Source of the DNA: Rhodobacteraceae bacterium HLUCCA08
Lineage (GTDB): Bacteria > Pseudomonadota > Alphaproteobacteria > Rhodobacterales > Rhodobacteraceae
DNA: 64,000 nt
NCBI GenBank assembly: GCA_001314655.1
Contig: LJSF01000014.1
Coordinates: 1 to 64,000 of the forward strand
Direction of reading: 5' to 3'
Shown: positions 4,664 to 57,008 of the stretch, piece by piece
Layout: every line of letters starts with the position of its first letter
How positions within the stretch are numbered: the stretch's first letter is position 1
Program-made: the position numbers and the translations under genes
The notes under the pieces: generated by a model
The model's database searches: none
What the model was told of the DNA's origin: nothing
What the model saw: only the letters and a program-made list of their open reading frames with translations

Positions 4664-5455
4664 ATGACACGGATCGACGCCAAATTCGCCCAGCTCAGGG
4701 CCGCCGGCCGCAAGGCCTTTGTCGCCTATGTCATGGGCGGGGATCCGGATTACGAAACCTCGCTCGAGCTGGTCAGGGGCCTGCCCGGCGCCGGGGTCGA
4801 CATCATCGAGCTGGGCATGCCCTTCACCGACCCGATGGCCGATGGCCCGACGATCCAGCTGGCCGGCCAGCGCGCGCTCGAAGGCGGCCAGACCCTGGAC
4901 AGGACGCTGCAGATCGTGCGCGAGCTGCGCAAGGCCGACGAGGCCACCCCGGTGGTGCTGATGGGCTATTACAACCCGATCTACAATCGCGGCGTCGACC
5001 GTTTCCTGGCCGATGCCAAGGCGGCCGGCGTCGACGGGCTGATCGTCGTCGACCTGCCCCCCGAAGAGGACGAAGAGCTGTGCCTGCCCGCCCAGGCCGC
5101 GGGGCTGAACTTCATCCGCCTGGCCACCCCCACCACCGATGACAGACGCCTGCCGAAGGTGCTGACCAACACCTCGGGCTTCGTCTATTACGTGTCGATC
5201 ACCGGGATCACCGGTTCGGCCGAGGCGCAGGCCGGCGATGTCGGCCCCGAAGTGGCGCGGATCAAGGCGCAGACCGACCTGCCGGTCATCGTCGGTTTCG
5301 GGATCAGGACGCCCGAGGCCGCCGGCACCATCGCCGGCGTCGCCGATGGCTGTGTCGTCGGCTCGGCGATCGTGTCGGAGATCGGGGCGGGCAAGCCGGT
5401 GGCGCAGGTGCTGGACTTCGTCCGCGGCCTGGCCGAGGGCGCCCATTCGGCCTGA
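4664..5455 (+). CDS. trpA: Tryptophan synthase alpha subunit
   Basis: 263 aa. The motifs ...[11 protein letters not shown]..., [18 protein letters not shown] and a GF..R.. C-terminal region are typical of TrpA. Confidence 0.9.
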
Positions 5456-5524
5456 TTGCGGGCGATTGCGCCCTTGCGCCGGCGGGGCTACCAATTGGCT
5501 CACCACGTTGAAGGATCCCCGCCC

Positions 5525-6694
5525 ATGCCCGTGATCACCTGCATCGACGACCTCAAGCGCCTGCACAGGCGGCGCACGCCGAAGATGTTCTACGATTACG
5601 CGGAATCCGGCAGCTGGACCGAACAGACCTTTCGGGACAATACCACCGATTTCGCGCAGATCCGCCTGCGCCAGCGCGTGGCGGTCGACATGTCGAACCG
5701 CACCACCGCCTCGACCATGGCCGGCCACAAGGTGGCGATGCCCGTCGCGCTTGCCCCGGTCGGGCTGACCGGCATGCAGCGCGCCGACGGAGAGATCAAG
5801 GCCGCGAAGGCGGCCGAGAAATTCGGCGTGCCCTTCACCCTGTCCACCATGTCGATCTGTTCGATCGAGGATGTGCGCGAACACACGAAGGAACCGTTCT
5901 GGTTCCAGCTTTACGTGATGCGCGACGAGGATTTCGTCGACAACATCATCGCCAGGGCCAGGAACGCCGGTTGTTCGGCGCTGGTGCTGACGCTGGATCT
6001 GCAGATCCTCGGCCAGCGCCACAAGGACCTCAAGAACGGGTTGTCGGCGCCGCCCCGGCTGACCCTGCCGGTGATGGCCGACCTGGCGACCAAGTGGCGC
6101 TGGGGGCTGGAGATGCTGCGCACCCCGCGCCGGACCTTCCGCAACATCGTCGGCCACGCCAAGGGCGTGAACCAGATGGGCTCGCTCATGTCCTGGACCA
6201 ACGAACAATTCGACCCCCGGCTGGACTGGGACAAGATCGCCCGGCTGAAGGAAAAATGGGGCGGCACCCTGATCCTGAAGGGCGTGCTGGACGTGGAGGA
6301 TGCCCGGCGCGCCGCCGATATCGGCGCCGATGCCATCGTCGTGTCGAACCACGGCGGGCGGCAACTGGACGGGGCGCTGTCGGCGATCCGCGTGTTGCCC
6401 TCGATCGTGCGCGCCGTGGGCGAGCGGGTCGAGGTCCATTTCGACAGCGGCATCCGCTCGGGCCAGGATGTGCTCAAGGCGCTCGCGCTGGGGGCCAGGG
6501 GCACCTATATCGGCCGCGCCTATATCCACGGGCTCGGCGCGATGGGCGAGGCCGGCGTGACCCGCGCGCTCGAGGTGATCCACAAGGAACTCGACGTGTC
6601 GATGGCGCTGTGCGGCCGGCGCGACGTGCAGGATCTGGGTCGCGACGTCCTGCTGGTGCCCGAGGATTTCGAAGGCCGCTGGGCCCCGGCCTGA
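5525..6694 (+). CDS. lldD: FMN-dependent alpha-hydroxy-acid dehydrogenase (L-lactate dehydrogenase/LldD-like)
   Basis: MPVITCIDDLKRLHRRRTPKMFYDYAESGSWTEQTFRDN ... SNHGGRQLDGA shows the glycolate oxidase/LldD family signatures. The start at ATG 5525 is preceded by GAAGGA. Confidence 0.8.
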   Translation: MPVITCIDDLKRLHRRRTPKMFYDYAESGSWTEQTFRDNTTDFAQIRLRQRVAVDMSNRTTASTMAGHKVAMPVALAPVGLTGMQRADGEIKAAKAAEKFGVPFTLSTMSICSIEDVREHTKEPFWFQLYVMRDEDFVDNIIARARNAGCSALVLTLDLQILGQRHKDLKNGLSAPPRLTLPVMADLATKWRWGLEMLRTPRRTFRNIVGHAKGVNQMGSLMSWTNEQFDPRLDWDKIARLKEKWGGTLILKGVLDVEDARRAADIGADAIVVSNHGGRQLDGALSAIRVLPSIVRAVGERVEVHFDSGIRSGQDVLKALALGARGTYIGRAYIHGLGAMGEAGVTRALEVIHKELDVSMALCGRRDVQDLGRDVLLVPEDFEGRWAPA

Positions 6695-43360: not shown

Positions 43361-44590
43361 ATGCGCCGCGTCGTCGTCACAGGGCTTGGCATCGTATCGC
43401 CCATCGGAAACACCGCCGCCGAGGTGGATGCCGCCCTGCGCGCCGGAACCTCGGGGATCGAGGCCGTGCCGGACATGGCCGAACACGGCTTTCGCAGCCA
43501 GATCGCCGGCACCGTCAAGATCGACCCGGCCGAACATGTCGACAAACGCGCCCTGCGGTTCATGGGGCCGGGGGCGGCCTATGCCCATATCGCGATGTCC
43601 CAGGCGATCGCCGATGCGGGGCTGGAGGAACGCGATGTCGTCAACCCGCGCACCGGGCTGATCGCCGGCTCGGGCGGGCCCTCCACCTCTGCCATGTTCG
43701 CCGCCCATCAGACCGTGCTGGACAAGGGCAGCCCGAAACGCATCGGGCCCTTCGCGGTGCCGAAATGCATGTCCTCGACCATCAGCGCCAACCTGGCCAC
43801 CGCCTTTCGGATCAAGGGGATCAACTACTCGATCACCTCGGCCTGTTCGACCAGCCTGCACTGCATCGGCGCGGCGGCCGAACAGATCCTGCTGGGCAAG
43901 CAGGACGTGATGTTCGCCGGCGGCGGAGAGGAACTGGACTGGACCCTGTCCTGCCTGTTCGACGCCATGGGCGCCATGAGCTCTCGGCGCAACGACGCGC
44001 CGCAGACAGCCAGCCGCGCCTTCGACGCCGATCGCGACGGCTTCGTCATCGCCGGCGGCGGCGGCATCCTGGTGCTCGAGGACCTGGAGCACGCCCGCGC
44101 CCGCGGCGCGACGATCCATGCCGAGGTCACCGGGTTCGCCGCCACCTCGGACGGCCACGACATGGTCGCCCCCTCGGGCGAAGGCGCCGAACGGGCCATG
44201 GCGCTGGCGCTGGCCACCCTGCCCAAGGGCCGCGCGGTCAGCTATATCAACGCCCATGGCACCTCGACCGGCGCCGGCGACCTCCCCGAGATCGAGGCCG
44301 TGCGCCGCGCCTTTGCCGGCCGCACCCAGCCGCCGGTCAGTTCGACCAAGTCGATGACCGGCCACGCCCAGGGCGCCGCCGGCGCGCTCGAGGCGGTGTT
44401 CTGCCTGCTGATGCTCAAGGGCGACTACATCACCCCGTCGATCAATATCGACACGCTCGACCCGGCGATCGAGCCGGGCGAAATCGCCACCGCGCTGGTC
44501 GAAAACGTCGGCCACGATACGATCATGACCAATTCCTTCGGTTTCGGCGGGACGAACGGGTCGATGTTGCTCTCCAGGTTCCGGGATTGA
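43361..44590 (+). CDS. fabB: 3-oxoacyl-ACP synthase I
   Basis: The active Cys is in ACSTSLH, and the His/His region GHAQGAAG is present. 409 aa. Confidence 0.9.
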   Translation: MRRVVVTGLGIVSPIGNTAAEVDAALRAGTSGIEAVPDMAEHGFRSQIAGTVKIDPAEHVDKRALRFMGPGAAYAHIAMSQAIADAGLEERDVVNPRTGLIAGSGGPSTSAMFAAHQTVLDKGSPKRIGPFAVPKCMSSTISANLATAFRIKGINYSITSACSTSLHCIGAAAEQILLGKQDVMFAGGGEELDWTLSCLFDAMGAMSSRRNDAPQTASRAFDADRDGFVIAGGGGILVLEDLEHARARGATIHAEVTGFAATSDGHDMVAPSGEGAERAMALALATLPKGRAVSYINAHGTSTGAGDLPEIEAVRRAFAGRTQPPVSSTKSMTGHAQGAAGALEAVFCLLMLKGDYITPSINIDTLDPAIEPGEIATALVENVGHDTIMTNSFGFGGTNGSMLLSRFRD

Positions 44591-44594
44591 CCGA

Positions 44595-45383
44595 ATGACG
44601 ATTTCACTGAACGGCAAGCGCGGCTTGATCATGGGCGTGGCCAATGACCGCTCCATCGCCTGGGGCATCGCCCGCGCCATGCACGAGGCCGGGGCCGAGC
44701 TGGCCTTTTCCTACCAGGGCGAACAATTGCTCAAGCGGGTCGGTCCGCTGGCCGAAAGCCTCGGCTCGGACCTGTTGGTCGAGTCCGACGTGACGGACGA
44801 TGCCTCGCTCGATGCCTGTTTCGCCGAACTGGCCGACCGCTGGGGAAAGATCGATTTCCTGGTCCATGCCATCGCCTTTTCCGACAAGTCGGAACTGACC
44901 GGGCGGATCACCAACACCACCCGCGGCAATTTCCGCAATTCGATGGAGATCAGCTGCTACAGCTTCATCGACGTCAGCAAACGCGCGGCCGAGATCATGC
45001 CCGATGGCGGCGCGCTGATGACCATGACCTACCAGGGATCGACCCGGGTCACGCCGAATTACAACGTGATGGGCGTGGCCAAGGCGGCGCTGGAATCGGC
45101 GACCCGGTATCTGGCCGCCGACCTCGGCCCGCAGGGGATCCGCGTCAACGCGATCAGCCCCGGCCCGATGAAGACCCTCGCCGGGGCCGCCATCGCCGGC
45201 GCCCGGCGCACCTTCAAACATACCGAGGCGAATTCCCCGCTGCGCGCCAATGCCACGCTCGAGGCGATCGGCGGCACCGCGGTCTATCTGGCCTCGGACG
45301 CCGGGGCCTGCACCAGCGGCGAAATCCTCCGTGTCGATTGCGGCTATCACGTCATGGGCATGCCGATCCTGGAAAATCTCTGA
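44595..45383 (+). CDS. fabI: Enoyl-ACP reductase (NADH)
   Basis: The NAD-binding region GVANDRSIAWGIA is present, within the SDR fold and the Tyr/Lys catalytic region. Confidence 0.9.
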   Translation: MTISLNGKRGLIMGVANDRSIAWGIARAMHEAGAELAFSYQGEQLLKRVGPLAESLGSDLLVESDVTDDASLDACFAELADRWGKIDFLVHAIAFSDKSELTGRITNTTRGNFRNSMEISCYSFIDVSKRAAEIMPDGGALMTMTYQGSTRVTPNYNVMGVAKAALESATRYLAADLGPQGIRVNAISPGPMKTLAGAAIAGARRTFKHTEANSPLRANATLEAIGGTAVYLASDAGACTSGEILRVDCGYHVMGMPILENL

Positions 45384-46180: not shown

Positions 46181-46629
46181 GCCCCGTTGATCTCGACCAG
46201 CTCGACCGCAAAGACCAGGTCCTTGCCGGCCAGCGGGTGATTGGCATCCAGCGTCACCTCGGTCTCGGTCACTTCGGTCACCACGACCGGAACCGCCTGG
46301 CCCGACGGCGCCTGCATCTGCAATTGCAGACCGACTTCCAGCGGGATTTCCGGCGGCACCTGGTCGCGCGGGACCGCCTGGGTGGCGTCGGGGTTGACCG
46401 GGCCATAGGCCTCGTCGCTGGGGATCTCGACCGTCTTCTTGTCGCCGACCTGCATGCCCGGCATCGCCTTGTCCAGACCCGGAATGATCTGGCCCGATCC
46501 GACGGTGAATTCCAGCGGCTCGCGCCCTTCGGAACTGTCGAAGGGTTCGCCGTTGGTCAGCGTTCCGGTGTAGTGAATGCGCACGGTGTCGCCAGTCTTG
46601 ACCTGGGTCATCAAAGCCTCGTTCGTCAT
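46177..46629 (-). CDS. FKBP-type peptidyl-prolyl cis-trans isomerase (SlyD/FkpB-like)
   Basis: It has an FKBP domain with an inserted flap. It is 150 aa, or 144 aa if MTQVKTGD is the start. Confidence 0.8.
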   Translation of the reverse strand: MTNEALMTQVKTGDTVRIHYTGTLTNGEPFDSSEGREPLEFTVGSGQIIPGLDKAMPGMQVGDKKTVEIPSDEAYGPVNPDATQAVPRDQVPPEIPLEVGLQLQMQAPSGQAVPVVVTEVTETEVTLDANHPLAGKDLVFAVELVEINGA

Positions 46630-46772
46630 GGTGGGGGATGAATGTCGAAGGCCGCTTTGCGTCGCGGGTGCTTCGTCTCGGGGGTCAGCCTACCGGCTGT
46701 GCCGCGGGGATGCAAACCGCCCTTTCGCCCGGGGTCCGCCCGTGCCAGTCTTTGCCCAAACCGGAGGACGCC

Positions 46773-46901
46773 ATGACGATCCGCGCCTGCGTCTTCGACG
46801 CTTATGGAACCCTGTTCGACGTGGCCGCCGCCGCGCGCAGGGCCGCGGCCGAGCCGGCCCATGTCATCGACGACCTGACCGGGCTGGAGCGCCTGTTCTG
46901 A
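46773..46901 (+). pseudogene. N-terminal fragment of a haloacid dehalogenase-type (HAD) hydrolase
   Basis: MTIRACVFDAYGTLFDV is HAD motif I, but the ORF is only 42 aa before a stop. The next gene starts at the overlapping TGATG. Confidence 0.5.
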
Positions 46902-47713
46902 TGCCGCAATTCACCACCCCCGACGGCGTGTCGATCCACTTTACCGATGCCGGCAGCGGGCCGGCCGTGCTGGCGATTCCCGGCCTGACCCGCAATACCG
47001 GCGATTTCGACCATGTCGCCCCGCATCTGCCGGTGCGGCTGATCCGGATCGACCTGCGCGGTCGCGGCCGGTCGGGCCGGGCGGACCCCGCGACCTATAC
47101 CGTCCCGCACGAGGCACAGGACGTGCTGGGGCTGATGGATCACCTCGGCCTCGACCGCGCCGCGATCCTGGGCACCTCGCGCGGGGGGGTGATCGCCATG
47201 GCCCTGGCCGCCGGCGCAAGACACCGTCTGACCGGCGTCGCCCTGGTCGATATCGGCCCCGAGATCGCGCCCGGGGGGCTGGCCGTCATCGCCTCCTATG
47301 TCGGCAAGCCCCCGGCGCAGAAAACCTGGGACGAAGCCGCCCGGTTCCGCGCCCGCACCTGGAGCGGGTTCACCGATGTCCCGATGGAGCGCTGGCTGCA
47401 CGAGGTCCGCAACCATTACGAGCAAACCCCCGACGGCCTTGCCCTGCGCTATGATCCCGCCCTTGGTGATGCCTTCAAGGACGGCGCCCAGCCGGTGCCG
47501 GACATGTGGCCGCTGTTCGACGCGATGGCGGGCCTGCCGCTGGTCCTGATCCGCGGCGCCAATTCCGACCTTCTGACCACCGACACCGCGGCCGAGATGC
47601 GCCGCCGCCGCCCGGACATGATCCGTGCCGATGTGCCCGGCCGCGGCCATGTGCCCTTTCTGGATGAACCCGAGGCGCTTGCCGCCCTTCACGACTGGAT
47701 CGCCCGCCTATGA
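46901..47713 (+). CDS. Alpha/beta-fold hydrolase
   Basis: The nucleophile elbow GTSRGG and an HGxP-like start are present. 270 aa. Confidence 0.75.
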   Translation: MPQFTTPDGVSIHFTDAGSGPAVLAIPGLTRNTGDFDHVAPHLPVRLIRIDLRGRGRSGRADPATYTVPHEAQDVLGLMDHLGLDRAAILGTSRGGVIAMALAAGARHRLTGVALVDIGPEIAPGGLAVIASYVGKPPAQKTWDEAARFRARTWSGFTDVPMERWLHEVRNHYEQTPDGLALRYDPALGDAFKDGAQPVPDMWPLFDAMAGLPLVLIRGANSDLLTTDTAAEMRRRRPDMIRADVPGRGHVPFLDEPEALAALHDWIARL

Positions 47714-48690
47714 ACATCGACATGATCCGCGCCGCCGCCGGTCGGCTGGAGGGCCATGCCCGGCGCACCCCGCTGCTCAATTCGCCCTTCCTCGACAAGA
47801 TCGCCGGGCGGCGGGTCTGGGTGAAACCCGAATGCCTGCAGCATACCGGCAGCTTCAAGTTCCGCGGCGCCTGGTCGGCCCTGTCGGCGCTGGATGACGC
47901 CACCCGTGCCCGCGGCGTGATCGCCTTTTCCTCGGGCAACCATGCGCAGGGCGTCGCCATGGCCGCCGGGCTGCACGGCGTGCCGGCGGTGATCGTCATG
48001 CCCTCGGACGCGCCCGCGCTCAAGATCGCCAATACCCGCGCCCTGGGGGCAAAGGTCATCCTGTATGACCGCGCCACCCAGGACCGGGACGAGATCGGCG
48101 CCCGCGTCGCCGCCGAAAGCGGCCTGACCCTGGTCAAGCCCTTCGACGACCCGCAGGTGATCGCCGGCCAGGGCACGACCGGGCTGGAGATTGCGCAGCA
48201 GGCCGCCGAACAGGGCATCGACACGGCCGAGGTGCTGGTCTGCACCGGCGGCGGGGGCCTGTGTTCCGGCATCGCCCTGGCGCTCGAGGCCGAGGCGCCC
48301 GGCCTCACCGTCCGCCCGGTCGAACCGGACGGCTTCGACGACGTGGCCCGGTCGCTCGCCGCCGGCGCGGTCCGGCGCAATGACCGGCTGTCGGGCAGCA
48401 TCTGCGACGCGATCCTGACCCCGGCGCCCGGCGATCTGACCTTTCCGATCCTCGCCCGGCTTTGCGGCCCCGGCCTGACCGTGACCGAGGACCAGGCGTT
48501 GCAGGCCATGGCCCAGGCCTTCCTGCGGCTGAAACTCGTGGCCGAACCGGGCGGCGCCGTGGCCCTGGCCGCAGCGCTTTTTCGCCCGGACGACATCGCC
48601 GGTGACGACGTGATCGTCACCATCTCGGGCGGTAACGTGGATCCGGCCATGTTCGCCCGCGCCCTGACCACGCTGGAGACCCCGTCATGA
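47710..48690 (+). CDS. PLP-dependent serine/threonine dehydratase-family enzyme (fold-type II)
   Basis: The PLP Lys is in HTGSFKFRGA, and the GGGGL Gly-rich loop is present. Confidence 0.8.
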   Translation: MNIDMIRAAAGRLEGHARRTPLLNSPFLDKIAGRRVWVKPECLQHTGSFKFRGAWSALSALDDATRARGVIAFSSGNHAQGVAMAAGLHGVPAVIVMPSDAPALKIANTRALGAKVILYDRATQDRDEIGARVAAESGLTLVKPFDDPQVIAGQGTTGLEIAQQAAEQGIDTAEVLVCTGGGGLCSGIALALEAEAPGLTVRPVEPDGFDDVARSLAAGAVRRNDRLSGSICDAILTPAPGDLTFPILARLCGPGLTVTEDQALQAMAQAFLRLKLVAEPGGAVALAAALFRPDDIAGDDVIVTISGGNVDPAMFARALTTLETPS

Positions 48691-49907
48691 CCCGCTTCAC
48701 CATCGCCTCGTTCAACGTCAAGAACCTGATCGGGCCGGACAGGGAATATTACGAATTCCAAAGCTACACGCCCGAGGAATACGCCTGGAAAGCCGATTGG
48801 CTGGCCGACCAATTGCTGACGATGGAGGCCGATATCGTCGGCTTTCAGGAAATCTTCGAGGAACAGCCGCTGGCCCAGATCATCGCCGAAACCGATGCCC
48901 GTGGCGCCGCGCTCAACGATGCCGCGATCCCGGACCGGTCCCGGGGCTACCGCAAGAAGGCGATCTTCCGGAAACTGGAATATACCCCCTACGGGCCCGG
49001 CGCCGCGCTGGCCTTTGCCCCCAACGCCGCCGATGACGGAACGCCCGGCAAGCGGCGGCCGGGGGTGGCGGTGCTGTCGCGTTTCGGTTTTGCCGGCGAA
49101 CCGGAGGTGATCCAGGATCTGGACACGCCGCTCACCATCCCGTTCCAGCCCCTGCGCGGGATGACCGGGTCCGACAGTGGCCATTTCACCCTGCGCCGGC
49201 TGTCGCGTCCGGTCCTCAAGGTGCGGGTGCCGGTGGGCGGCGCCATCCTCACCGTGTTCAACTGCCACCTGAAATCCAAGCTGGGGGAATACATCACGCC
49301 GCCCGGCGCCGCCTTCGCCCCCGAGGCCGACCTGACCCGCTATGACCCGCTGGGCCGGGCCATGGGCAGCCTGCGCGCCGCCCTGCGCCGGATGGCCGAG
49401 GCCTGGGTGCTGCGGCGCGCGGTGGTGGCCGAACTCGACGCCGGCCACCCGGTGATGGTGCTGGGCGATTTCAACGACGGCGAACATGCGGTCAGCTCGG
49501 AAATCATCGCCGGCGAGGTGCCGTTCAAGAATTACGCCTGGATGCTGCGCCACGATGCCGAAAGCCCGGGCGACCGCTACAGCCATGAAGAAAATATCCG
49601 GATCACCGAAAGCATCGAACGGCTGCGGCTGCATTCGGCCGAAAAGCTGTTCGTGCGCAAATCCCTGCGCGACATGGTCTATACCTCGGCCTTCGGCGGG
49701 GTGTTCGAGTCGATCGACCAGATCTACCTGTCGCGGCATTTCCACCCCGATCACGACCAGCGGATCGGCGAGATGGAGTATTTCTCGGTCCTCAACGACC
49801 ATCTGACCGACGGCTCGCATCCCGAGGCGCCCTATAACAAGCTCGCCTCCGATCACGGGCAGATCATCGCCCATATGCGGCTGGGCGGCGGCGACGATGC
49901 GGGTTGA
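48687..49907 (+). CDS. Endonuclease/exonuclease/phosphatase (EEP)-family protein
   Basis: 406 aa with EEP-like motifs (FNVKNL..., GDFND, SDHG). Confidence 0.6.
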   Translation: MTRFTIASFNVKNLIGPDREYYEFQSYTPEEYAWKADWLADQLLTMEADIVGFQEIFEEQPLAQIIAETDARGAALNDAAIPDRSRGYRKKAIFRKLEYTPYGPGAALAFAPNAADDGTPGKRRPGVAVLSRFGFAGEPEVIQDLDTPLTIPFQPLRGMTGSDSGHFTLRRLSRPVLKVRVPVGGAILTVFNCHLKSKLGEYITPPGAAFAPEADLTRYDPLGRAMGSLRAALRRMAEAWVLRRAVVAELDAGHPVMVLGDFNDGEHAVSSEIIAGEVPFKNYAWMLRHDAESPGDRYSHEENIRITESIERLRLHSAEKLFVRKSLRDMVYTSAFGGVFESIDQIYLSRHFHPDHDQRIGEMEYFSVLNDHLTDGSHPEAPYNKLASDHGQIIAHMRLGGGDDAG

Positions 49908-50670
49908 ACGGGACGGGATCGCCCTGAATGCGCATGTGTCCGGCGACGGCCCGCCGGTCCTGTTCCTGCATGCGCTGGGGCTGGATCACACGATCTGGGC
50001 CGATGTCATGGGCCAAATGCCGAACCACCGGCTGATCGCGATGGACCTGCGCGGGCACGGAGCCTCCGACGCGCCGCCGCCGGCCTACGCGATGGGCGCC
50101 CTGATCGCCGATGCCGAGGCGGTGCTGGAGGCGGCCGAGGCGCGCGATGCCGTGGTGATCGGCATCTCGCTGGGCGGGATGATCGCCCAGGGGCTGGCGG
50201 TCAAACGGCTGGACCTGGTGCGCGCCCTGGTGCTGTCGAACACCGCCGCCAGGTTCGGCCAGCCCGGCCCCTGGCAGGACCGCGCCGCGCTGGTGCAGGC
50301 GCAGGGAATGGCGGCGATCGAGGAGACGACGCTGACCCGCTGGTTCGGCAGGGGCGCCAGCGGCCCGGCCGTCGACGCCGCCCGCGCCCTGCTGCGCGAC
50401 TGCGACCCGCAGGGCTATGCCGGCGGCTGCACCGCCATCGCCGGAACCGATTTCTACACGCCCACCTCGGGCCTGCGCCTGCCCACCCTGGGCATCGCCG
50501 GGGATCGCGACGGATCGACCCCGCCCGACCTGGTGCGCGAAACCCTGGAGCTGATCCCGGGGTCGGACGTCCGGCTGATGCGCCGCTCGGGTCACCTGCC
50601 CTGCCTGGATGCGCCCGAGGCCATGGCGGCGCTGATCCGCGATTTCCTGGCCCGGATCGGCCATAGCTGA
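49897..50670 (+). CDS. Alpha/beta hydrolase, 3-oxoadipate enol-lactonase-like
   Basis: The GISLGG nucleophile elbow is present. Length and pattern resemble PcaD. Confidence 0.7.
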   Translation: MRVERDGIALNAHVSGDGPPVLFLHALGLDHTIWADVMGQMPNHRLIAMDLRGHGASDAPPPAYAMGALIADAEAVLEAAEARDAVVIGISLGGMIAQGLAVKRLDLVRALVLSNTAARFGQPGPWQDRAALVQAQGMAAIEETTLTRWFGRGASGPAVDAARALLRDCDPQGYAGGCTAIAGTDFYTPTSGLRLPTLGIAGDRDGSTPPDLVRETLELIPGSDVRLMRRSGHLPCLDAPEAMAALIRDFLARIGHS

Positions 50671-51893: not shown

Positions 51894-53129
51894 ATGAAGC
51901 TGACCGACCTCGATATCATCGTCACCGCCGCGCCGGCGCCGGGCTGGGGCGGGCGCTACTGGATCCTGGTCAAGGTCACGACCGATACCGGGATCACCGG
52001 CTGGGGCGAATGCTATGCCAGCGCCGTGGGCCCCGACGCCATGCGCGCGGTCATCGCGGATGTGTTCAGCCGCCACATGGCGGGCGAGACCCCCGAGAAT
52101 ATCGAACTGATGTTCCGCCGCGCCTATTCGGCGGGCTTCACCCAGCGGCCCGACCCCACGGTGATGGGGGCCTTTTCCGGGCTGGAAATCGCCTGCTGGG
52201 ATATCCTCGGCAAGGATCGCGGCCGGCCGGTCCATGCCCTGATCGGCGGCAAGGTGAACGACCGGATCCGGGCCTATACCTATCTCTATCCCCTGCCCCA
52301 TCACGACCTGCCGGGCTTCTGGGGATCGCCCGAAATGGCCGCCGAAAGCGCCGCGGCGCTGGTCGCGCGCGGCTATACGGCGGTCAAGTTCGACCCGGCC
52401 GGCCCCTATACGATCCGCGGCGGGCATCAGCCATCGCTTGCCGATATCGAGGCTTCGGTCGCCTTCTGCGCCGCGATCCGGGCGGCGGTGGGAACCAGGG
52501 CCGACCTTCTGTTCGGCACCCATGGGCAATTCTCGCGCGGCGGCGCGATCCGGCTGGCAAGGGCGATCGAACCCCATGACCCGCTGTGGTTCGAGGAACC
52601 GGTGCCGCCCGACAATGTCGCCGACATGGCCGCCGTCGCCGGCGCCACCCGGATTCCCGTCGCCACCGGCGAACGGCTGAGCACCAAGGCCGAATTCGCC
52701 CCCGTGCTGCGGTCCGGCGCGGCGACCATCCTGCAACCGGCCCTGGGCCGCGCCGGCGGCATCTGGGAAGGCAAGAAGATCGCCACCCTGGCCGAGGTCT
52801 ACAACGCCCAGATCGCGCCGCATCTTTATGCCGGGCCGGTGGAATGGGCCGCCAATATCCAGCTGGCCGCCGCCTGCGCCAACACGCTGATGGCCGAAAC
52901 CATCGAAACCCCGTTCCACGACGCGCTGATCGGCGGCGCCCTGCGGGTCGAGGACGGGTATGTCCGCGTGCCGGACGCGCCGGGCCTGGGCATCGAGGTC
53001 GACGAGGCGCTGGCCCGTGCCCATCCCTATACCGGCGACGGGCTGCATCTGCAGATGCAGGAGGCGCCGATCTCCTATCACGGTGCCAACCCGTTCGCGG
53101 GCGGCGCGCCGGTGAAATCCGGCGAATAG
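51894..53129 (+). CDS. Enolase-superfamily enzyme (mandelate racemase / sugar-acid dehydratase-like)
   Basis: 411 aa. The N-terminal capping domain and the metal ligands D...E...E pattern are present (FDPAGPY..., FEEP). Confidence 0.75.
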   Translation: MKLTDLDIIVTAAPAPGWGGRYWILVKVTTDTGITGWGECYASAVGPDAMRAVIADVFSRHMAGETPENIELMFRRAYSAGFTQRPDPTVMGAFSGLEIACWDILGKDRGRPVHALIGGKVNDRIRAYTYLYPLPHHDLPGFWGSPEMAAESAAALVARGYTAVKFDPAGPYTIRGGHQPSLADIEASVAFCAAIRAAVGTRADLLFGTHGQFSRGGAIRLARAIEPHDPLWFEEPVPPDNVADMAAVAGATRIPVATGERLSTKAEFAPVLRSGAATILQPALGRAGGIWEGKKIATLAEVYNAQIAPHLYAGPVEWAANIQLAAACANTLMAETIETPFHDALIGGALRVEDGYVRVPDAPGLGIEVDEALARAHPYTGDGLHLQMQEAPISYHGANPFAGGAPVKSGE

Positions 53130-53180
53130 GGCCGGCCCCCGGCATCCACGGCTTTCTTCCCGGCGCGGGCGCGCGTATGT

Positions 53181-53193
53181 TGAACGCGGTTCA
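53181..53193. promoter_or_regulatory. Palindrome TGAAC-GCG-GTTCA, 16 bp upstream of the tetR start (candidate operator)
   Basis: Seen directly. It has the same half-sites as the two sites downstream of tetR. Confidence 0.5.
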
Positions 53194-53208
53194 CGCCGAG
53201 GAGTCCCC

Positions 53209-53814
53209 ATGGCCGGAAAGACCCAAACCCGCCGCCGCGCCCTGCGCGAAGCCCTGATCGAACACGCCGAACGCCGGATCCATGCGGACGGGTTGGCCGC
53301 CCTGCGCGCCCGCGACCTGGCGCAGGATGCGGGCTGCGCGCTGGGGGCGATCTACAATGTCTTCGGCGATCTGGGGGAACTGGTGCTGGCCGTCAATGCC
53401 CGCACCTTCGAGGCGCTGGGCGCCCAGGTGGCCGAGGCGCTGGCCGATGCGCCGCAGGACGCGACCGGGCAATTGGTGGTGATGGCCCGCGCCTATCACC
53501 GTTTCGCTGCCGAGAATTACCACGCCTGGCGCGCCCTGTTCGACATCGACCGCCCCGCCGGCGCGGCCGCGCCGGATTGGTACCTGACCGAGATGAACCG
53601 CCTTTTCGCCTATATCGAGGCGCCGCTGCGCGCGCTTTTTCCCGATCTGGGGCCACAGGACCTGGCGCTGCTGACCCGGGCCTTGTTCTCCTCCGTTCAT
53701 GGCATCGTCATGCTGGCGCTGAACGAAGCCAGCGCGGGCGTGCCCCAAGCCGAGGTCGACCGGATGATCGCCCTTGTCCTGCACCGTATGGCCGGGCTGC
53801 CTCAAGGAAAATGA
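53209..53814 (+). CDS. TetR-family transcriptional regulator
   Basis: The N-terminal HTH is LRARDLAQDAGCALGAIYNVF. 201 aa. Confidence 0.85.
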   Translation: MAGKTQTRRRALREALIEHAERRIHADGLAALRARDLAQDAGCALGAIYNVFGDLGELVLAVNARTFEALGAQVAEALADAPQDATGQLVVMARAYHRFAAENYHAWRALFDIDRPAGAAAPDWYLTEMNRLFAYIEAPLRALFPDLGPQDLALLTRALFSSVHGIVMLALNEASAGVPQAEVDRMIALVLHRMAGLPQGK

Positions 53815-53881
53815 ACAGCGTTCACGCTTTTCGTTGACCCCGCGATGCGAATCGCCCTATCCAATTTGTGAACAGCGTTCA
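53812..53881. promoter_or_regulatory. Two identical palindromes TGAACAGCGTTCAC (53812-53825 and 53869-53882) in the tetR-pspA intergenic region
   Basis: Both are seen directly. The first overlaps the tetR stop codon. The second ends 15 bp before the pspA ATG, just upstream of the AGGAAAGG RBS. Confidence 0.55.
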
Positions 53882-53896
53882 CGAAAGGAAAGGCGG

Positions 53897-54628
53897 ATGT
53901 TCAGAACCCTCTCGACCCTGATCGCCGGGGTCTCGGCCCGCTCCGAGGACCGGGTCCGTGACGCCTTCGCGATCGAACTGATCGACCAGAAGATCCGCGA
54001 GGCCGACGCCCAGCTCAAGGCCGCCAAGGCCATGCTCGCCTCGCTGATCCAGCGCCAGCGCGGCGAACAGCGCCAACGCGACGCCCTGCGCGGCCGGATC
54101 GCCGACATGACCACCCGCGCCGCCGAGGCGCTGCAGGCCGGCCGCGACGACATGGCCCGCGAGGCCGCCCAGGCGATCGCCACGATGGAAAACGAACGGG
54201 CCCTGCGCGACACCACCTGCGACCGGCTGGAGCAGAAGGTGATCCGCCTGCGCAGCGCGATCGAGGCCGGTCACCGCCGGGTCATCGACCTGAAACAGGG
54301 CGCGATCCGGGCCCGGGCGGTGCGCCGCGAACAACAGATGCAGGCGCGGCTGAGTTCGGCCATCGGCGCCACGTCGGCCAGCGACGAGGCCGAGGAGTTG
54401 ATCGCCCGCGTCATGGGCCGCGACGACCCGTTCGAACATTCCGAAATCCTGCGCGAAATCGACAGCGACCTGGGCCATGAAACCCTGGCCGACCGGATGG
54501 CCGCCCAGGGATTCGGCGCCGCCACCCGGGTCACCGCCGATGATGTGCTGGCCCGCCTGCAGCGGCTCGAAGAGGCGCGCAACGAACGCCTGCTGGCCGA
54601 ATATGTGGGGGGCAAGGACCAGGCGTGA
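53897..54628 (+). CDS. pspA: PspA/IM30-family membrane-stress protein
   Basis: MFRTLSTLIAGVSARSEDRVRDAFAIELIDQKIREADAQLKAAKAMLASLIQRQ... is all-helical coiled coil, typical of PspA/Vipp1. The start at 53897 has an AGGAAAGG RBS. Confidence 0.8.
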   Translation: MFRTLSTLIAGVSARSEDRVRDAFAIELIDQKIREADAQLKAAKAMLASLIQRQRGEQRQRDALRGRIADMTTRAAEALQAGRDDMAREAAQAIATMENERALRDTTCDRLEQKVIRLRSAIEAGHRRVIDLKQGAIRARAVRREQQMQARLSSAIGATSASDEAEELIARVMGRDDPFEHSEILREIDSDLGHETLADRMAAQGFGAATRVTADDVLARLQRLEEARNERLLAEYVGGKDQA

Positions 54629-54736
54629 TCCCCGCCGCGTCGCATCCCCCGCATGCCCCGCCGGGTCTGTCCCGCCCGGCGGGGCCCCGTTTCGCGCCCC
54701 CTTTCCAAACCCCGCGCCCCGCGCCAAGGTTGCCGC

Positions 54737-55417
54737 ATGGGAACGATCACCCGTCTTCTGCGCCGCATCGCCGCCCGGGCCACCGGGCATGTGCTGGTCT
54801 TCATCGCCCGTTTCATCACCGCCGTGCGTGCCGATTGGCGGGGGATCGAACCGGTGCCGCGCCAGCGGGTCTATTTCGCAAATCACGTGTCCAATGCCGA
54901 CATGCCGATGATCTGGGCCGTCCTGCCGCCGGCCCTGCGGCGCGAGGTCCGGCCCGTCGCCGCCGCCGATTACTGGCTCAAGACCCCGCTGCGCGCCTTC
55001 GTCGGCCCCGAGGTCTTCAACTGCGTGCTGGTCGACCGCCGCCCCGAGGCGCGCAGTGACGACCCGCTGGAGAGCATTCTTGCCGCCCTGCGCGAGGGGT
55101 CGTCGCTGATCATCTTTCCCGAAGGCGGGCGCAACATGGGCCCCGACCCGTTGCTGCCGTTCAAGGCCGGGCTGTACAACATCGGCCGCGCATGTCCCGA
55201 GGTGGACCTGGTGCCGACCTGGATCGCCAACCTGACCGCGATCATGCCCAAGGGCGAAATCATCCCCCTGCCGCTGATCTGCACCGTGACCTTCGGCGCG
55301 CCGCTGCATGTCGACCCGGGCGAGGACAAGGATGCCTTTCTGGCCCGCGCCTCGGGCGCGCTGGCCGCGCTCGCCCCGCCGCCGCCGCCGCCCGCGCCGG
55401 AACAGGCCCCGGCATGA
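54737..55417 (+). CDS. Lysophospholipid (1-acyl-sn-glycerol-3-phosphate) acyltransferase, PlsC family
   Basis: The HX4D motif HVSNAD and FPEGGRN are present. The C-terminus is Pro-rich (APPPPPPAPEQAPA). Confidence 0.75.
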   Translation: MGTITRLLRRIAARATGHVLVFIARFITAVRADWRGIEPVPRQRVYFANHVSNADMPMIWAVLPPALRREVRPVAAADYWLKTPLRAFVGPEVFNCVLVDRRPEARSDDPLESILAALREGSSLIIFPEGGRNMGPDPLLPFKAGLYNIGRACPEVDLVPTWIANLTAIMPKGEIIPLPLICTVTFGAPLHVDPGEDKDAFLARASGALAALAPPPPPPAPEQAPA

Positions 55418-56364
55418 CCGACACCACCTATCAGCACATCCTGATCCTGTTCCTGGGGGTTTGCGGCCTGCTGCTAGCGCTGACCCTGTTCGGCGCCGCC
55501 CTGCGCGCCCGTTACGGCCGTGGCCAGGACAACCCGGTGATCGAAACCTACATGACCCGGGTCCATAGCTGGTGGACCATGGTGCTGCTGTTCGTGCTGG
55601 CGCTGATGCTGGGCCGGGTCGGGGTCGTGCTGCTCTTCGCCTTCGCCTCGTTCTCGGCGCTGCGCGAATTCCTGACCCTGACCTACAAGCGCCAGGCCGA
55701 TCACATCGCCCTCGCGCTGGCCTTTTTCGCGGTGCTGCCGTTGCAATACCTCTTCGTGGGCCTGGGCTGGCAGGCGGTCTATACGGTGTTCATCCCGGTC
55801 TATGCCTTCCTGCTGCTGCCGGTCGTGTCGGCCCTGCGCGGGGATGCGTCGGGGTTCCTGGTGCGGGTGGCCGAAACCCAATGGGGCCTGATGATCACCG
55901 TGTTCTGCGCCAGCCACGTGCCGGCGCTGCTGAACCTGGGCTTTCCCGATTACCCGGCGGACCGGGGCCTGTTGCTGATCGCCTTCCTGGTCATGGTCGT
56001 CCAGTTCGGCGACCTGCTGGATTTCTATTTCGGCCGCCGCCTTGGCCGGACCCGGATCGTGCCGGGCCTGTCGCCCAAGACCTGGGAAGGCGCGTCCCTG
56101 GGCGTCGCCAGCGCCGCACTGATCGGCGGCGCGCTGGCCTGGCTGACACCGTTCCCGGTCTGGGGCGCGATGGCGATGGCGGCGGTGGCCTCGGCCACCG
56201 GCCAGGCCGGCAACCTGGTGATCGCCGCGATCAAGCGCGACCGCGGCGTGCGCGACTGGTCCCACCTGATCCCCGGCCAGGGCGGTTTCGTCGACCAGAT
56301 GGACAGCGTGATGTTCGCCGCCCCGGTCTTCTATCACCTCACCGCGCTCGCCTGGGCCAGCTGA
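55414..56364 (+). CDS. CDP-diglyceride synthetase (CdsA)-family integral membrane protein
   Basis: It is polytopic. SPKTWEG and the C-terminal PGQGGFVDQMDS match the CTP-transferase signature. The start ATG overlaps the previous stop as ATGA. Confidence 0.7.
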   Translation: MTDTTYQHILILFLGVCGLLLALTLFGAALRARYGRGQDNPVIETYMTRVHSWWTMVLLFVLALMLGRVGVVLLFAFASFSALREFLTLTYKRQADHIALALAFFAVLPLQYLFVGLGWQAVYTVFIPVYAFLLLPVVSALRGDASGFLVRVAETQWGLMITVFCASHVPALLNLGFPDYPADRGLLLIAFLVMVVQFGDLLDFYFGRRLGRTRIVPGLSPKTWEGASLGVASAALIGGALAWLTPFPVWGAMAMAAVASATGQAGNLVIAAIKRDRGVRDWSHLIPGQGGFVDQMDSVMFAAPVFYHLTALAWAS

Positions 56365-57008
56365 CGCCGCCGCATCAGCGCCACGACACCGAACGCACTG
56401 GCCAGAAGCAGACCGCCCGCCGGCAGCGGCACGGGCGCGGGGGTGGTGATCCGGATGTCGGTGAACTGGAATTCGTATTCGATCCCGAAGGCCGACCAGA
56501 ATACTCCGCCCGTCGTACCCTGGTAATAGGCGTCGTTCATGTAGCGGTAAGACCCGGTCAAAGGATCCATTTCGGCCTCGTAGACGTAACAGCAGCCATC
56601 GGTCCTTCGATAGCGAAAGCTGCGACTCGCCTCGTCCAGCGACGCCTCAAGGTAGTTGCCCCATTGGCAGAAGTCCCGCTCCGTACCCGTGAGGTAGCAG
56701 TCCAGCGAATATTGGTTGTCCAGGTCCAGTTCATCGGGGTGGAAATACAAGGCCAGTCGCCCGGAACGGGATTCTCCCCTCTCCAAACCGCCGATATTGA
56801 AGCCCAGTTCAGCCAAGGAGAACCGGCGCGCATTGAAATCGACGTTTTCGTAGGTTGCCTGATCATAACTCTCGTCGAGGAACAGAGACCAGTTCGACAA
56901 TGTCGACGTGAACGTCGCCTCGTAGACCAGCGTCGCCGCGTCGGACTTCGCACCGAACAGCGTCACGGCGGCGCCCAGGACCGCAGTCAAAACTCCAAAC
57001 CGACCCAT
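56334..57008 (-). CDS. Secreted protein with a C-terminal VPLPA-CTERM-type sorting signal
   Basis: A signal peptide (MGRFGVLTAVLGAAVTLFGA) is present. The extreme C-terminus is PAPVPLPAGGLLLASAFGVVALMRRRQ, that is a VPLPA motif, a TM helix and an Arg cluster. Confidence 0.65.
   Translation of the reverse strand: MGRFGVLTAVLGAAVTLFGAKSDAATLVYEATFTSTLSNWSLFLDESYDQATYENVDFNARRFSLAELGFNIGGLERGESRSGRLALYFHPDELDLDNQYSLDCYLTGTERDFCQWGNYLEASLDEASRSFRYRRTDGCCYVYEAEMDPLTGSYRYMNDAYYQGTTGGVFWSAFGIEYEFQFTDIRITTPAPVPLPAGGLLLASAFGVVALMRRRQLAQASAVR

Follow-up and report, generated by a model that had tools for sequence, protein, structure and literature searches.

A locus at 53181–56364 in the 64,000-nt stretch of Rhodobacteraceae bacterium HLUCCA08 DNA analysed here (contig LJSF01000014.1; the whole stretch is hereafter the window) encodes a TetR-family regulator, a PspA/IM30 homologue, a PlsC-like acyltransferase and a CdsA-like membrane protein. 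We consider it likely that the locus is a degenerate copy of a three-gene alphaproteobacterial membrane-stress module, in which TetR would repress pspA, and that plsC-cdsA is a separate unit. As read from comparison of related loci, the conserved unit is a TetR_C_33 regulator, PspA and a YiaAB-like membrane protein of ~95 amino acids with two helices, and not pspA-plsC-cdsA. The part of the locus that corresponds to this unit contains the following features.

53153–53181, + strand: putative tetR promoter, with −35 TTTCTT (53153–53158), a 17-nt spacer and −10 TATGTT (53176–53181) abutting operator O1
53181–53193: O1, TGAACGCGGTTCA, predicted tetR autorepression site, its end 15 nt from the tetR ATG (53209)
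53209–53814, + strand: tetR, 201 amino acids, TetR_C_33 type (PF13305, 42.8 bits against a cut-off of 26.8, E = 8.7e-11)
53812–53824: O2, TGAACAGCGTTCA, overlapping the tetR stop codon (TGA, 53812–53814), its end 9 nt upstream of the pspA −35
53834–53862, + strand: putative pspA promoter, with −35 TTGACC (53834–53839), a 17-nt spacer and −10 CTATCC (53857–53862)
53869–53881: O3, TGAACAGCGTTCA, from 6 nt past the pspA −10 over the expected transcription start, its end 15 nt before the pspA ATG (53897)
53897–54628, + strand: pspA, 243 amino acids, an in-frame fusion (residues 1–221 PspA, 222–243 tail of the partner protein)
54553–54628, + strand: deletion junction and yiaAB-like remnant, the microhomology CCGCCTG (54553–54559) followed by QRLEEARNERLLAEYVGGKDQA and a stop codon

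Exact matches to TGAAC-N3-GTTCA occur at these three operators and nowhere else in the window. The expected count is 0.03, none of 100 dinucleotide-preserving shuffles of the window reached three, and allowing one mismatch added no site. The three operators had been described as identical in the initial annotation of this DNA, which is correct for their half-sites and not for their spacers (GCG in O1, AGC in O2 and O3). The palindrome that it placed ahead of tetR was found there; of the two that it placed between the tetR stop and the pspA start, O3 is so located, whereas O2 overlaps the stop codon itself. This arrangement is what would be expected for promoter occlusion at pspA and autorepression at tetR.

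The module was then followed through related genomes. A scan of one genome per species identified 275 genomes with a relative, and the best 80 loci, all from Rhodobacteraceae (Octadecabacter, Loktanella, Yoonia, Marivivens, Cognatiyoonia, Roseovarius and others), were fetched. Six distant loci, from Labrys okinawensis (Hyphomicrobiales), a TARA scaffold and several metagenome-assembled genomes (MAGs), encode a PspA that is 25–37% identical. In all, 90 related loci were fetched and 89 carry the module, L090 being the exception. The operators are constant in position and in half-site sequence in every locus with this PspA subfamily (89/90), down to the 25–37% level of PspA identity. The subfamily itself is small and distinct: among 1.84 billion representative proteins it accounts for 489 clusters at E ≤ 1e-3 and 45 at E ≤ 1e-30.

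Upstream regions were compared by anchoring on start codons (phylogenetic footprinting). Ahead of tetR the layout is TTTCC or TTTGC (−35), ~17 nt, CTAT.. (−10) abutting the operator, ribosome-binding site and ATG (alignment of ~75 loci), and ahead of pspA it is O2, an AT-rich stretch, CTTGA (−35), 17 nt, CTATCT (−10), 6–7 nt, O3, ribosome-binding site and ATG (locus alignment). In both regions this operator architecture is fixed within otherwise diverged intergenic sequence. An O1-type operator stands directly 5' of tetR in 75 loci, the position of O2 is kept in 80, and O3 was found in 81/81 Rhodobacteraceae loci as well as in the distant loci L081–L087. Across the 80 Rhodobacteraceae loci and the window (932 kb), all 253 exact TGAAC-N3-GTTCA sites (the operator motif of the loci can also be written TGAACNNNGTTCA) lie in tetR or pspA promoter regions. 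An Rfam scan of 52900–56600 returned just a chance-level match to an internal ribosome entry site, with no riboswitch and no small RNA.

Some variation was seen around this core. A third operator of the pspA promoter, overlapping the −35 (CTTGAACnnnGTTCA), is present in L007, L019–L021, L023–L025, L030, L031, L034, L035, L037, L046, L070, L081 and L083–L087; since distant loci with a divergent tetR have one too, it may be ancestral and have been lost in the lineage of the window. In L010 (a Loktanella isolate, 5357–5916) and L012 (Marivivens marinus, 5292–5916), ~560–620 bp of extra sequence separate tetR from the pspA operators. Two loci labelled as MAGs of Mucilaginibacter sp. (L017) and Luminiphilus sp. 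(L040) are of Rhodobacteraceae type, with a PspA 67–75% identical to that of the window, and their labels probably reflect binning contamination.

The regulator gene accompanies the operators closely. A TetR_C_33 gene adjoins them in 85 of the 89 module-carrying loci, in co-directional or divergent orientation. Along its entire length the window TetR shares ~55% identity with PDB 3CJD (‘Transcriptional regulator, TetR family’; E = 2.4e-52), the helix-turn-helix (HTH) region being aligned throughout; our literature search found no paper on this structure. TetR orthologues with overall identities of 30–72%, including those at 30–45%, all have G46 and Y49 in the predicted recognition helix, a constancy that fits the invariant operator half-sites. 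These sequence relationships lend strong support to a TetR repressor that acts at the three palindromes to control both its own promoter and pspA.

The same organization extends to the distant loci. Two or three TGAAC-N3-GTTCA sites lie just upstream of pspA in all six, and a divergently transcribed TetR_C_33 gene adjoins pspA in five (the sixth contig is too short for checking). A gene of ~90 codons follows pspA in 5/6; four of its products have a recorded YiaAB match (PF05360; precomputed, E ≤ 1e-5 class), among them those of Labrys, L085 and L087. In the Rhodobacteraceae, a gene for a 95–97-amino acid protein occupies this position in 79/80 loci, and the copies fall below the threshold of PF05360 (E = 0.0075–0.23). 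The protein has two hydrophobic segments and a charged tail that carries an E.A..E.LL motif in all orthologues. The conserved order is therefore tetR-pspA-yiaAB-like, with plsC-cdsA not constant, in place of the order put forward in the initial annotation. A lack of any partner membrane protein beside pspA holds for the window, where the full gene is absent, and not for the relatives.

The PspA of the window, which is 100% identical to a recorded protein that bears the name of Rhodobacteraceae bacterium HLUCCA08, is a divergent member of its family. It matches PF04012 with 59 bits (cut-off 33.9; E = 6.6e-16) over model positions 17–216 of 220. No NCBIfam PspA model matched it, and a phmmer search against PDB sequences, solved PspA included, gave no match; profile search against PDB returned marginal, in-register matches to PspA/Vipp1 (E ~0.5). 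Its AlphaFold model is a long helical hairpin (mean predicted local distance difference test score, pLDDT, 77) with helices at residues 2–80 and 84–153 (pLDDT ~90). The best PDB fold matches of the model are Vipp1/PspA (E ~2e-3, probability 1.00; note that coiled-coil matches are of low specificity). Because the sequence similarity to solved PspA/Vipp1 is marginal, membership in the family is based on Pfam and fold.

Alignment with L014, L069, L003 and L010 revealed that ~290 bp are missing from the window. PspA residue 221 (...DDVLARL) joins straight onto the last 22 residues of the partner protein (QRLEEARNERLLAEYVGGKDQA), which include the E.A..E.LL motif, and the resulting C-terminus has no hydrophobic or membrane segment. 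A microhomology-mediated deletion of 290 bp probably removed the membrane partner and fused its 22-amino acid tail to PspA. A second, independent in-frame fusion of PspA and partner is found in L068 (6500–6760; Loktanella MAG JAIBDT010000032.1), where ...DAGFG|ILLLTLALVNF... marks the junction and the second membrane helix and the tail are kept. The two in-frame fusions hint that PspA and its partner work together; that of L068 is either a Rosetta-stone sign of interaction or a MAG artefact. It might also be argued that the window copy is a non-functional relic left by deletion of the partner, or that its fusion is an assembly artefact, the partner gene being missing just in the window and, partly, in L068, both of which are MAGs. 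We regard this as unlikely: the fusion is in frame and retains exactly the conserved tail motif, operators, promoter and both open reading frames (ORFs) are intact, records of the identical 243-amino acid protein exist for 6 contigs of several sources, and the L068 fusion arose independently.

Downstream of the pspA unit the window contains the following features.

54655–54685, + strand: GC-rich hairpin (11-bp all-GC stem, 9-nt loop), at which the pspA unit probably terminates
54702–54730, + strand: plsC promoter-like motif, TTTCCA (54702–54707), 17 nt, CAAGGT (54725–54730), 6 nt to the ATG
54737–55417, + strand: plsC-like gene, PlsC/LPAAT-family acyltransferase of 226 amino acids (PF01553, 60 bits, E = 2.5e-16)
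55414–56364, + strand: cdsA-like gene, CdsA-family (CTP_transf_1) membrane protein of 316 amino acids (PF01148, 172 bits, E = 3.8e-50)

The four gene families are those named in the initial annotation (PF13305, PF04012, PF01553 and PF01148 all above threshold in Pfam profile search), and the poly-Pro tail that it noted in the PlsC-like protein is the C-terminal end APPPPPPAPEQAPA. It is likewise borne out that pspB, pspC and pspF are lacking: 53181–56364 holds four genes only, PspB and PspC are encoded nowhere in the window, and the flanking genes encode an enolase-superfamily protein and a VPLPA-CTERM protein. The description of the genes as tightly coupled applies to plsC and cdsA, whose stop and start codons overlap (ATGA) and which are predicted on this ground to be translationally coupled; it does not apply to pspA and plsC, which are 108 nt apart with the hairpin in between.

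Several lines of evidence indicate that plsC-cdsA is probably a neighbouring separate unit with its own promoter and not a part of the TetR regulon. A GC-rich hairpin follows the pspA/yiaAB-like unit in 78/80 loci (median stem 11 bp), with a sequence that varies by locus and with T-runs after it in lower-GC genomes. Stems of ≥9 bp with ≥6 GC pairs were found in 63/80 loci compared to 11/201 control coding segments, and the hairpin is present in 9/9 plsC-less loci with enough downstream sequence. Ahead of plsC, matched loci share the motif TTT(T/C)CAA, ~16 nt, GCCAAAGT, 6–8 nt, ATG, usually without a Shine–Dalgarno sequence. The −35-like box TT[TC][TC]C[ATC]A was matched in 56/72 loci, a few of these matches being misplaced at the plsC start (most of the missed loci have TTTGCA-type variants). 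Such spacing suggests a leaderless or near-leaderless plsC-cdsA mRNA with a non-canonical −10 (CAAAGT/CAAGGT). No TGAAC-N3-GTTCA was found near plsC in any locus examined. The two gene sets also occur independently: at least 9 Rhodobacteraceae loci, including those of Roseovarius, Pseudaestuariivita, Parasulfitobacter and Planktotalea, have the module without plsC-cdsA, neither plsC nor cdsA is present in the 5/5 distant loci whose sequence continues past the module, and L090 has plsC-cdsA (products 70–77% identical to the window proteins) with the plsC motif and without tetR or pspA.

Five observations weigh against the interpretation of a TetR-controlled module with plsC-cdsA apart from it. 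(i) The TetR_N domain (PF00440; residues 16–62) scored 19.5 bits against a cut-off of 24, with all 47 model positions aligned. (ii) A strict sigma-70 and terminator consensus scan of 53000–56600 called neither a promoter nor a terminator in non-coding sequence, so that the promoter and terminator assignments made here are based on conservation. (iii) L027 (3800–5200) and L057 (3400–4820) have the operators and pspA without an adjacent tetR, and their regulator must be encoded elsewhere or have been lost; the upstream gene is RibBA-like in L027 and aminodeoxychorismate-synthase-like in L057 (judged by eye from ORF translations). (iv) The U-tract of the window hairpin is weak in this high-GC genome, so that read-through from pspA into plsC-cdsA is possible in the window. 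(v) plsC-cdsA lies 3' of the module in 69/80 Rhodobacteraceae loci, which makes a functional link conceivable.

The last two of these points favour the single TetR-gated pspA-plsC-cdsA operon of the initial annotation, in which membrane repair would be coupled to phospholipid synthesis and the hairpin would be a leaky attenuator. The genes share one strand, the gap between pspA and plsC is short and both gene sets are membrane-related. However, (i) the hairpin structure is kept in 78/80 loci even where nothing lipid-related comes next, (ii) the plsC motif lies near the ATG and is retained where tetR-pspA is absent, (iii) none of the 253 operators is near plsC, (iv) plsC-cdsA is missing beside the module in 9 Rhodobacteraceae loci and in 5/5 distant loci with downstream sequence and (v) the upstream zinc alcohol dehydrogenase and enolase-superfamily genes are as syntenic as plsC-cdsA. 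Synteny in fact covers the whole neighbourhood from genus to genus (two alpha/beta hydrolases, a PLP-dependent enzyme, an EEP-family protein, the alcohol dehydrogenase and the enolase-superfamily protein), so the adjacency of plsC-cdsA looks like block synteny. By gene order, the genes of the PlsC-like/CdsA-like pair and the module lie within one long syntenic block in a single clade of Rhodobacteraceae, and we find the single operon improbable.

It is very improbable that another regulator binds the palindromes while the adjacent TetR controls something else: L027 and L057 do keep operators without a neighbouring tetR, and the LexA box of alphaproteobacteria contains GAAC/GTTC tetramers as well, but a TetR_C_33 gene stands beside the operators in 85/89 loci in both orientations, one operator is always at the promoter of the TetR gene itself, recognition helix and half-sites are jointly invariant, and an inverted repeat of 13–15 bp suits a TetR dimer. 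As for LexA, its alphaproteobacterial box takes the form of a direct repeat, GTTC-N7-GTTC. A LexA/SOS box was rejected for the operators, which are inverted repeats with a 3-nt spacer.

If the three-gene module is read as TetR-controlled, its working can be pictured as follows. A TetR dimer would bind the 13-bp palindrome TGAAC-N3-GTTCA; O1, which abuts the tetR −10, would mediate autorepression, and O2 flanking the pspA −35 together with O3 covering the start would keep pspA off (in relatives, the gene for the small membrane protein too). A signal would free TetR from DNA, the likeliest candidate being a hydrophobic ligand of lipid origin bound in the C-terminal pocket; a less likely route is sequestration of TetR by the PspA/YiaAB pair. 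PspA would then be made and would bind damaged membrane via its N-terminal amphipathic helix, with the YiaAB-like protein using its conserved cytoplasmic tail to serve as an anchor or as a sensor. Transcription of the pspA unit would end at the hairpin terminator.

The module resembles three known systems in its proposed working and belongs to none of them. With the canonical Psp system of E. coli and Yersinia (PspF-PspABC(DE)) it shares a PspA/IM30 effector, small inner-membrane partners beside pspA and a dedicated adjacent regulator. It differs in lacking PspF, the sigma-54 activator, as well as PspB and PspC; there is instead a predicted TetR-type repressor with palindromic operators at a sigma-70-like promoter, the partner in relatives is a YiaAB-like protein with two hydrophobic segments and the PspA of the window is highly divergent. 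The initial annotation had placed TetR control of pspA outside the PspF/BC scheme, and the operator conservation in 89/90 loci argues for this. The LiaIH/LiaFSR system of Bacillus subtilis is similar in that a PspA homologue and a small membrane protein are co-transcribed and form a tightly regulated two-gene effector unit. The LiaI-type small membrane protein anchors the PspA homologue to the membrane. Lia has its anchor gene 5' of the pspA homologue and is governed by a two-component system, whereas here the candidate anchor is 3' of pspA and the regulator is a one-component TetR; by Pfam comparison, LiaI and the YiaAB-like protein have no sequence relationship. The ClgR-PspA-PspM-PspN arrangement of Mycobacterium and other actinobacteria has the same order of one-component regulator (HTH-type in ClgR, with a putative HTH in the TetR here), PspA and membrane protein. 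ClgR, however, is an Xre-type activator bound by PspA, the regulator here is of the TetR family and judged a repressor by operator placement, and both lineages and partner families differ. It is because the regulator and partner families differ that the module stands outside these three systems. Autoregulated TetR repressors (TetR, QacR, AcrR and TtgR types) have an N-terminal HTH, which is putative in the window TetR, and share with it an all-helical ligand domain and palindromes over their own and their target promoters; they target an efflux pump or a catabolic enzyme, whereas the predicted target here is the membrane-stress protein PspA.

A comparative-genomics survey of Psp systems makes no mention of TetR, YiaA, acyltransferase or cytidylyltransferase partners (PMC11237479). 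Our literature search found nothing on TetR-controlled PspA, on a PspA-YiaAB pairing, or on phage shock protein in Rhodobacterales or roseobacters. We tentatively propose, as a possibility somewhat short of an even chance, that the TetR_C_33, PspA and YiaAB trio is an undescribed, self-contained alphaproteobacterial envelope-stress system in which a one-component repressor replaces PspF, LiaRS and ClgR, and in which the YiaAB tail (E-x-A-x2-E-x-LL) docks PspA or TetR. The role of the tail as a docking or partner-switch element is hinted at by the two independent in-frame fusions. If true, this would be the first functional context for YiaAB, a two-helix domain so far uncharacterised. PspA, Vipp1 and ESCRT-III are universal membrane-repair machines whose switching on is understood in few lineages (PspF-BC, LiaFSR, ClgR), and a TetR-gated PspA with a fixed operator would offer a testable circuit for alphaproteobacteria, the abundant marine roseobacters included. 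The TetR ligand might be a small-molecule signal of membrane damage. Treating plsC-cdsA as a separate unit averts the misleading annotation of a ‘lipid-remodelling Psp operon’.

The PlsC-like and CdsA-like proteins belong to the enzyme families of the consecutive steps carried out by housekeeping PlsC and CdsA, and they retain the catalytic motifs HX4D and FPEG in the former and the Asp residues of CdsA in the latter. Both differ from the housekeeping enzymes in falling below NCBIfam equivalog cut-offs, and the CdsA-like protein also in having PGQGG..DQxD for PGHGG..DRxD. The PlsC-like protein, which has the motifs NHVSNAD (HX4D) and FPEGGRN, matched PDB 5KYM (PlsC) with E = 1e-4 and scored below cut-off for every NCBIfam equivalog; none of the four proteins received an equivalog-level name. 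SalA, the sulfur-aminolipid acyltransferase of roseobacters, is defined by HX5D (PMC8319176), and this identity was rejected for the PlsC-like protein on account of its HX4D motif. The CdsA-like protein scored 68 bits against the CdsA equivalog NF008635 (cut-off 385), and, the canonical PGHGG..DRxD signature not being kept either, assignment to housekeeping CdsA was rejected. Alignment with T. maritima CdsA gave PGQGGFVDQMD against PGHGGMLDRID, with K-R and three Asp retained. At residues ~265–295 (window 56200–56300), PGHGG..DRxD is replaced by PGQGG..DQxD and K by R, and the same holds for the L001 orthologue. The change of signature suggests an altered substrate or chemistry, and the protein is classed here as a CdsA paralogue. 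A homologue search with the CdsA-like protein found just close relatives (≥67% identity). E. coli YnbB is an example of a specialised CdsA paralogue.

In the wider neighbourhood, a VPLPA-CTERM sorting-domain protein (TIGR03370; 56334–57032, − strand) is encoded convergently to cdsA. The true start of this gene is probably further downstream, since its longest ORF shares 31 nt with the 3' end of cdsA, and the protein is absent from all related loci. A four-gene cluster encoding an alpha/beta hydrolase, a PLP-dependent enzyme, an EEP-family phosphoesterase and another alpha/beta hydrolase (window 46577–50670; L090 1–3312; L064 6–3300) stays beside plsC-cdsA even where tetR-pspA is lacking (L090); the real functional association of plsC-cdsA may be with this cluster, in an uncharacterised lipid pathway. 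About 8 kb upstream and on the same strand, 43361–45383 contains fatty-acid synthesis genes for a FabB/F-type ketoacyl synthase and a FabI-type enoyl-ACP reductase.

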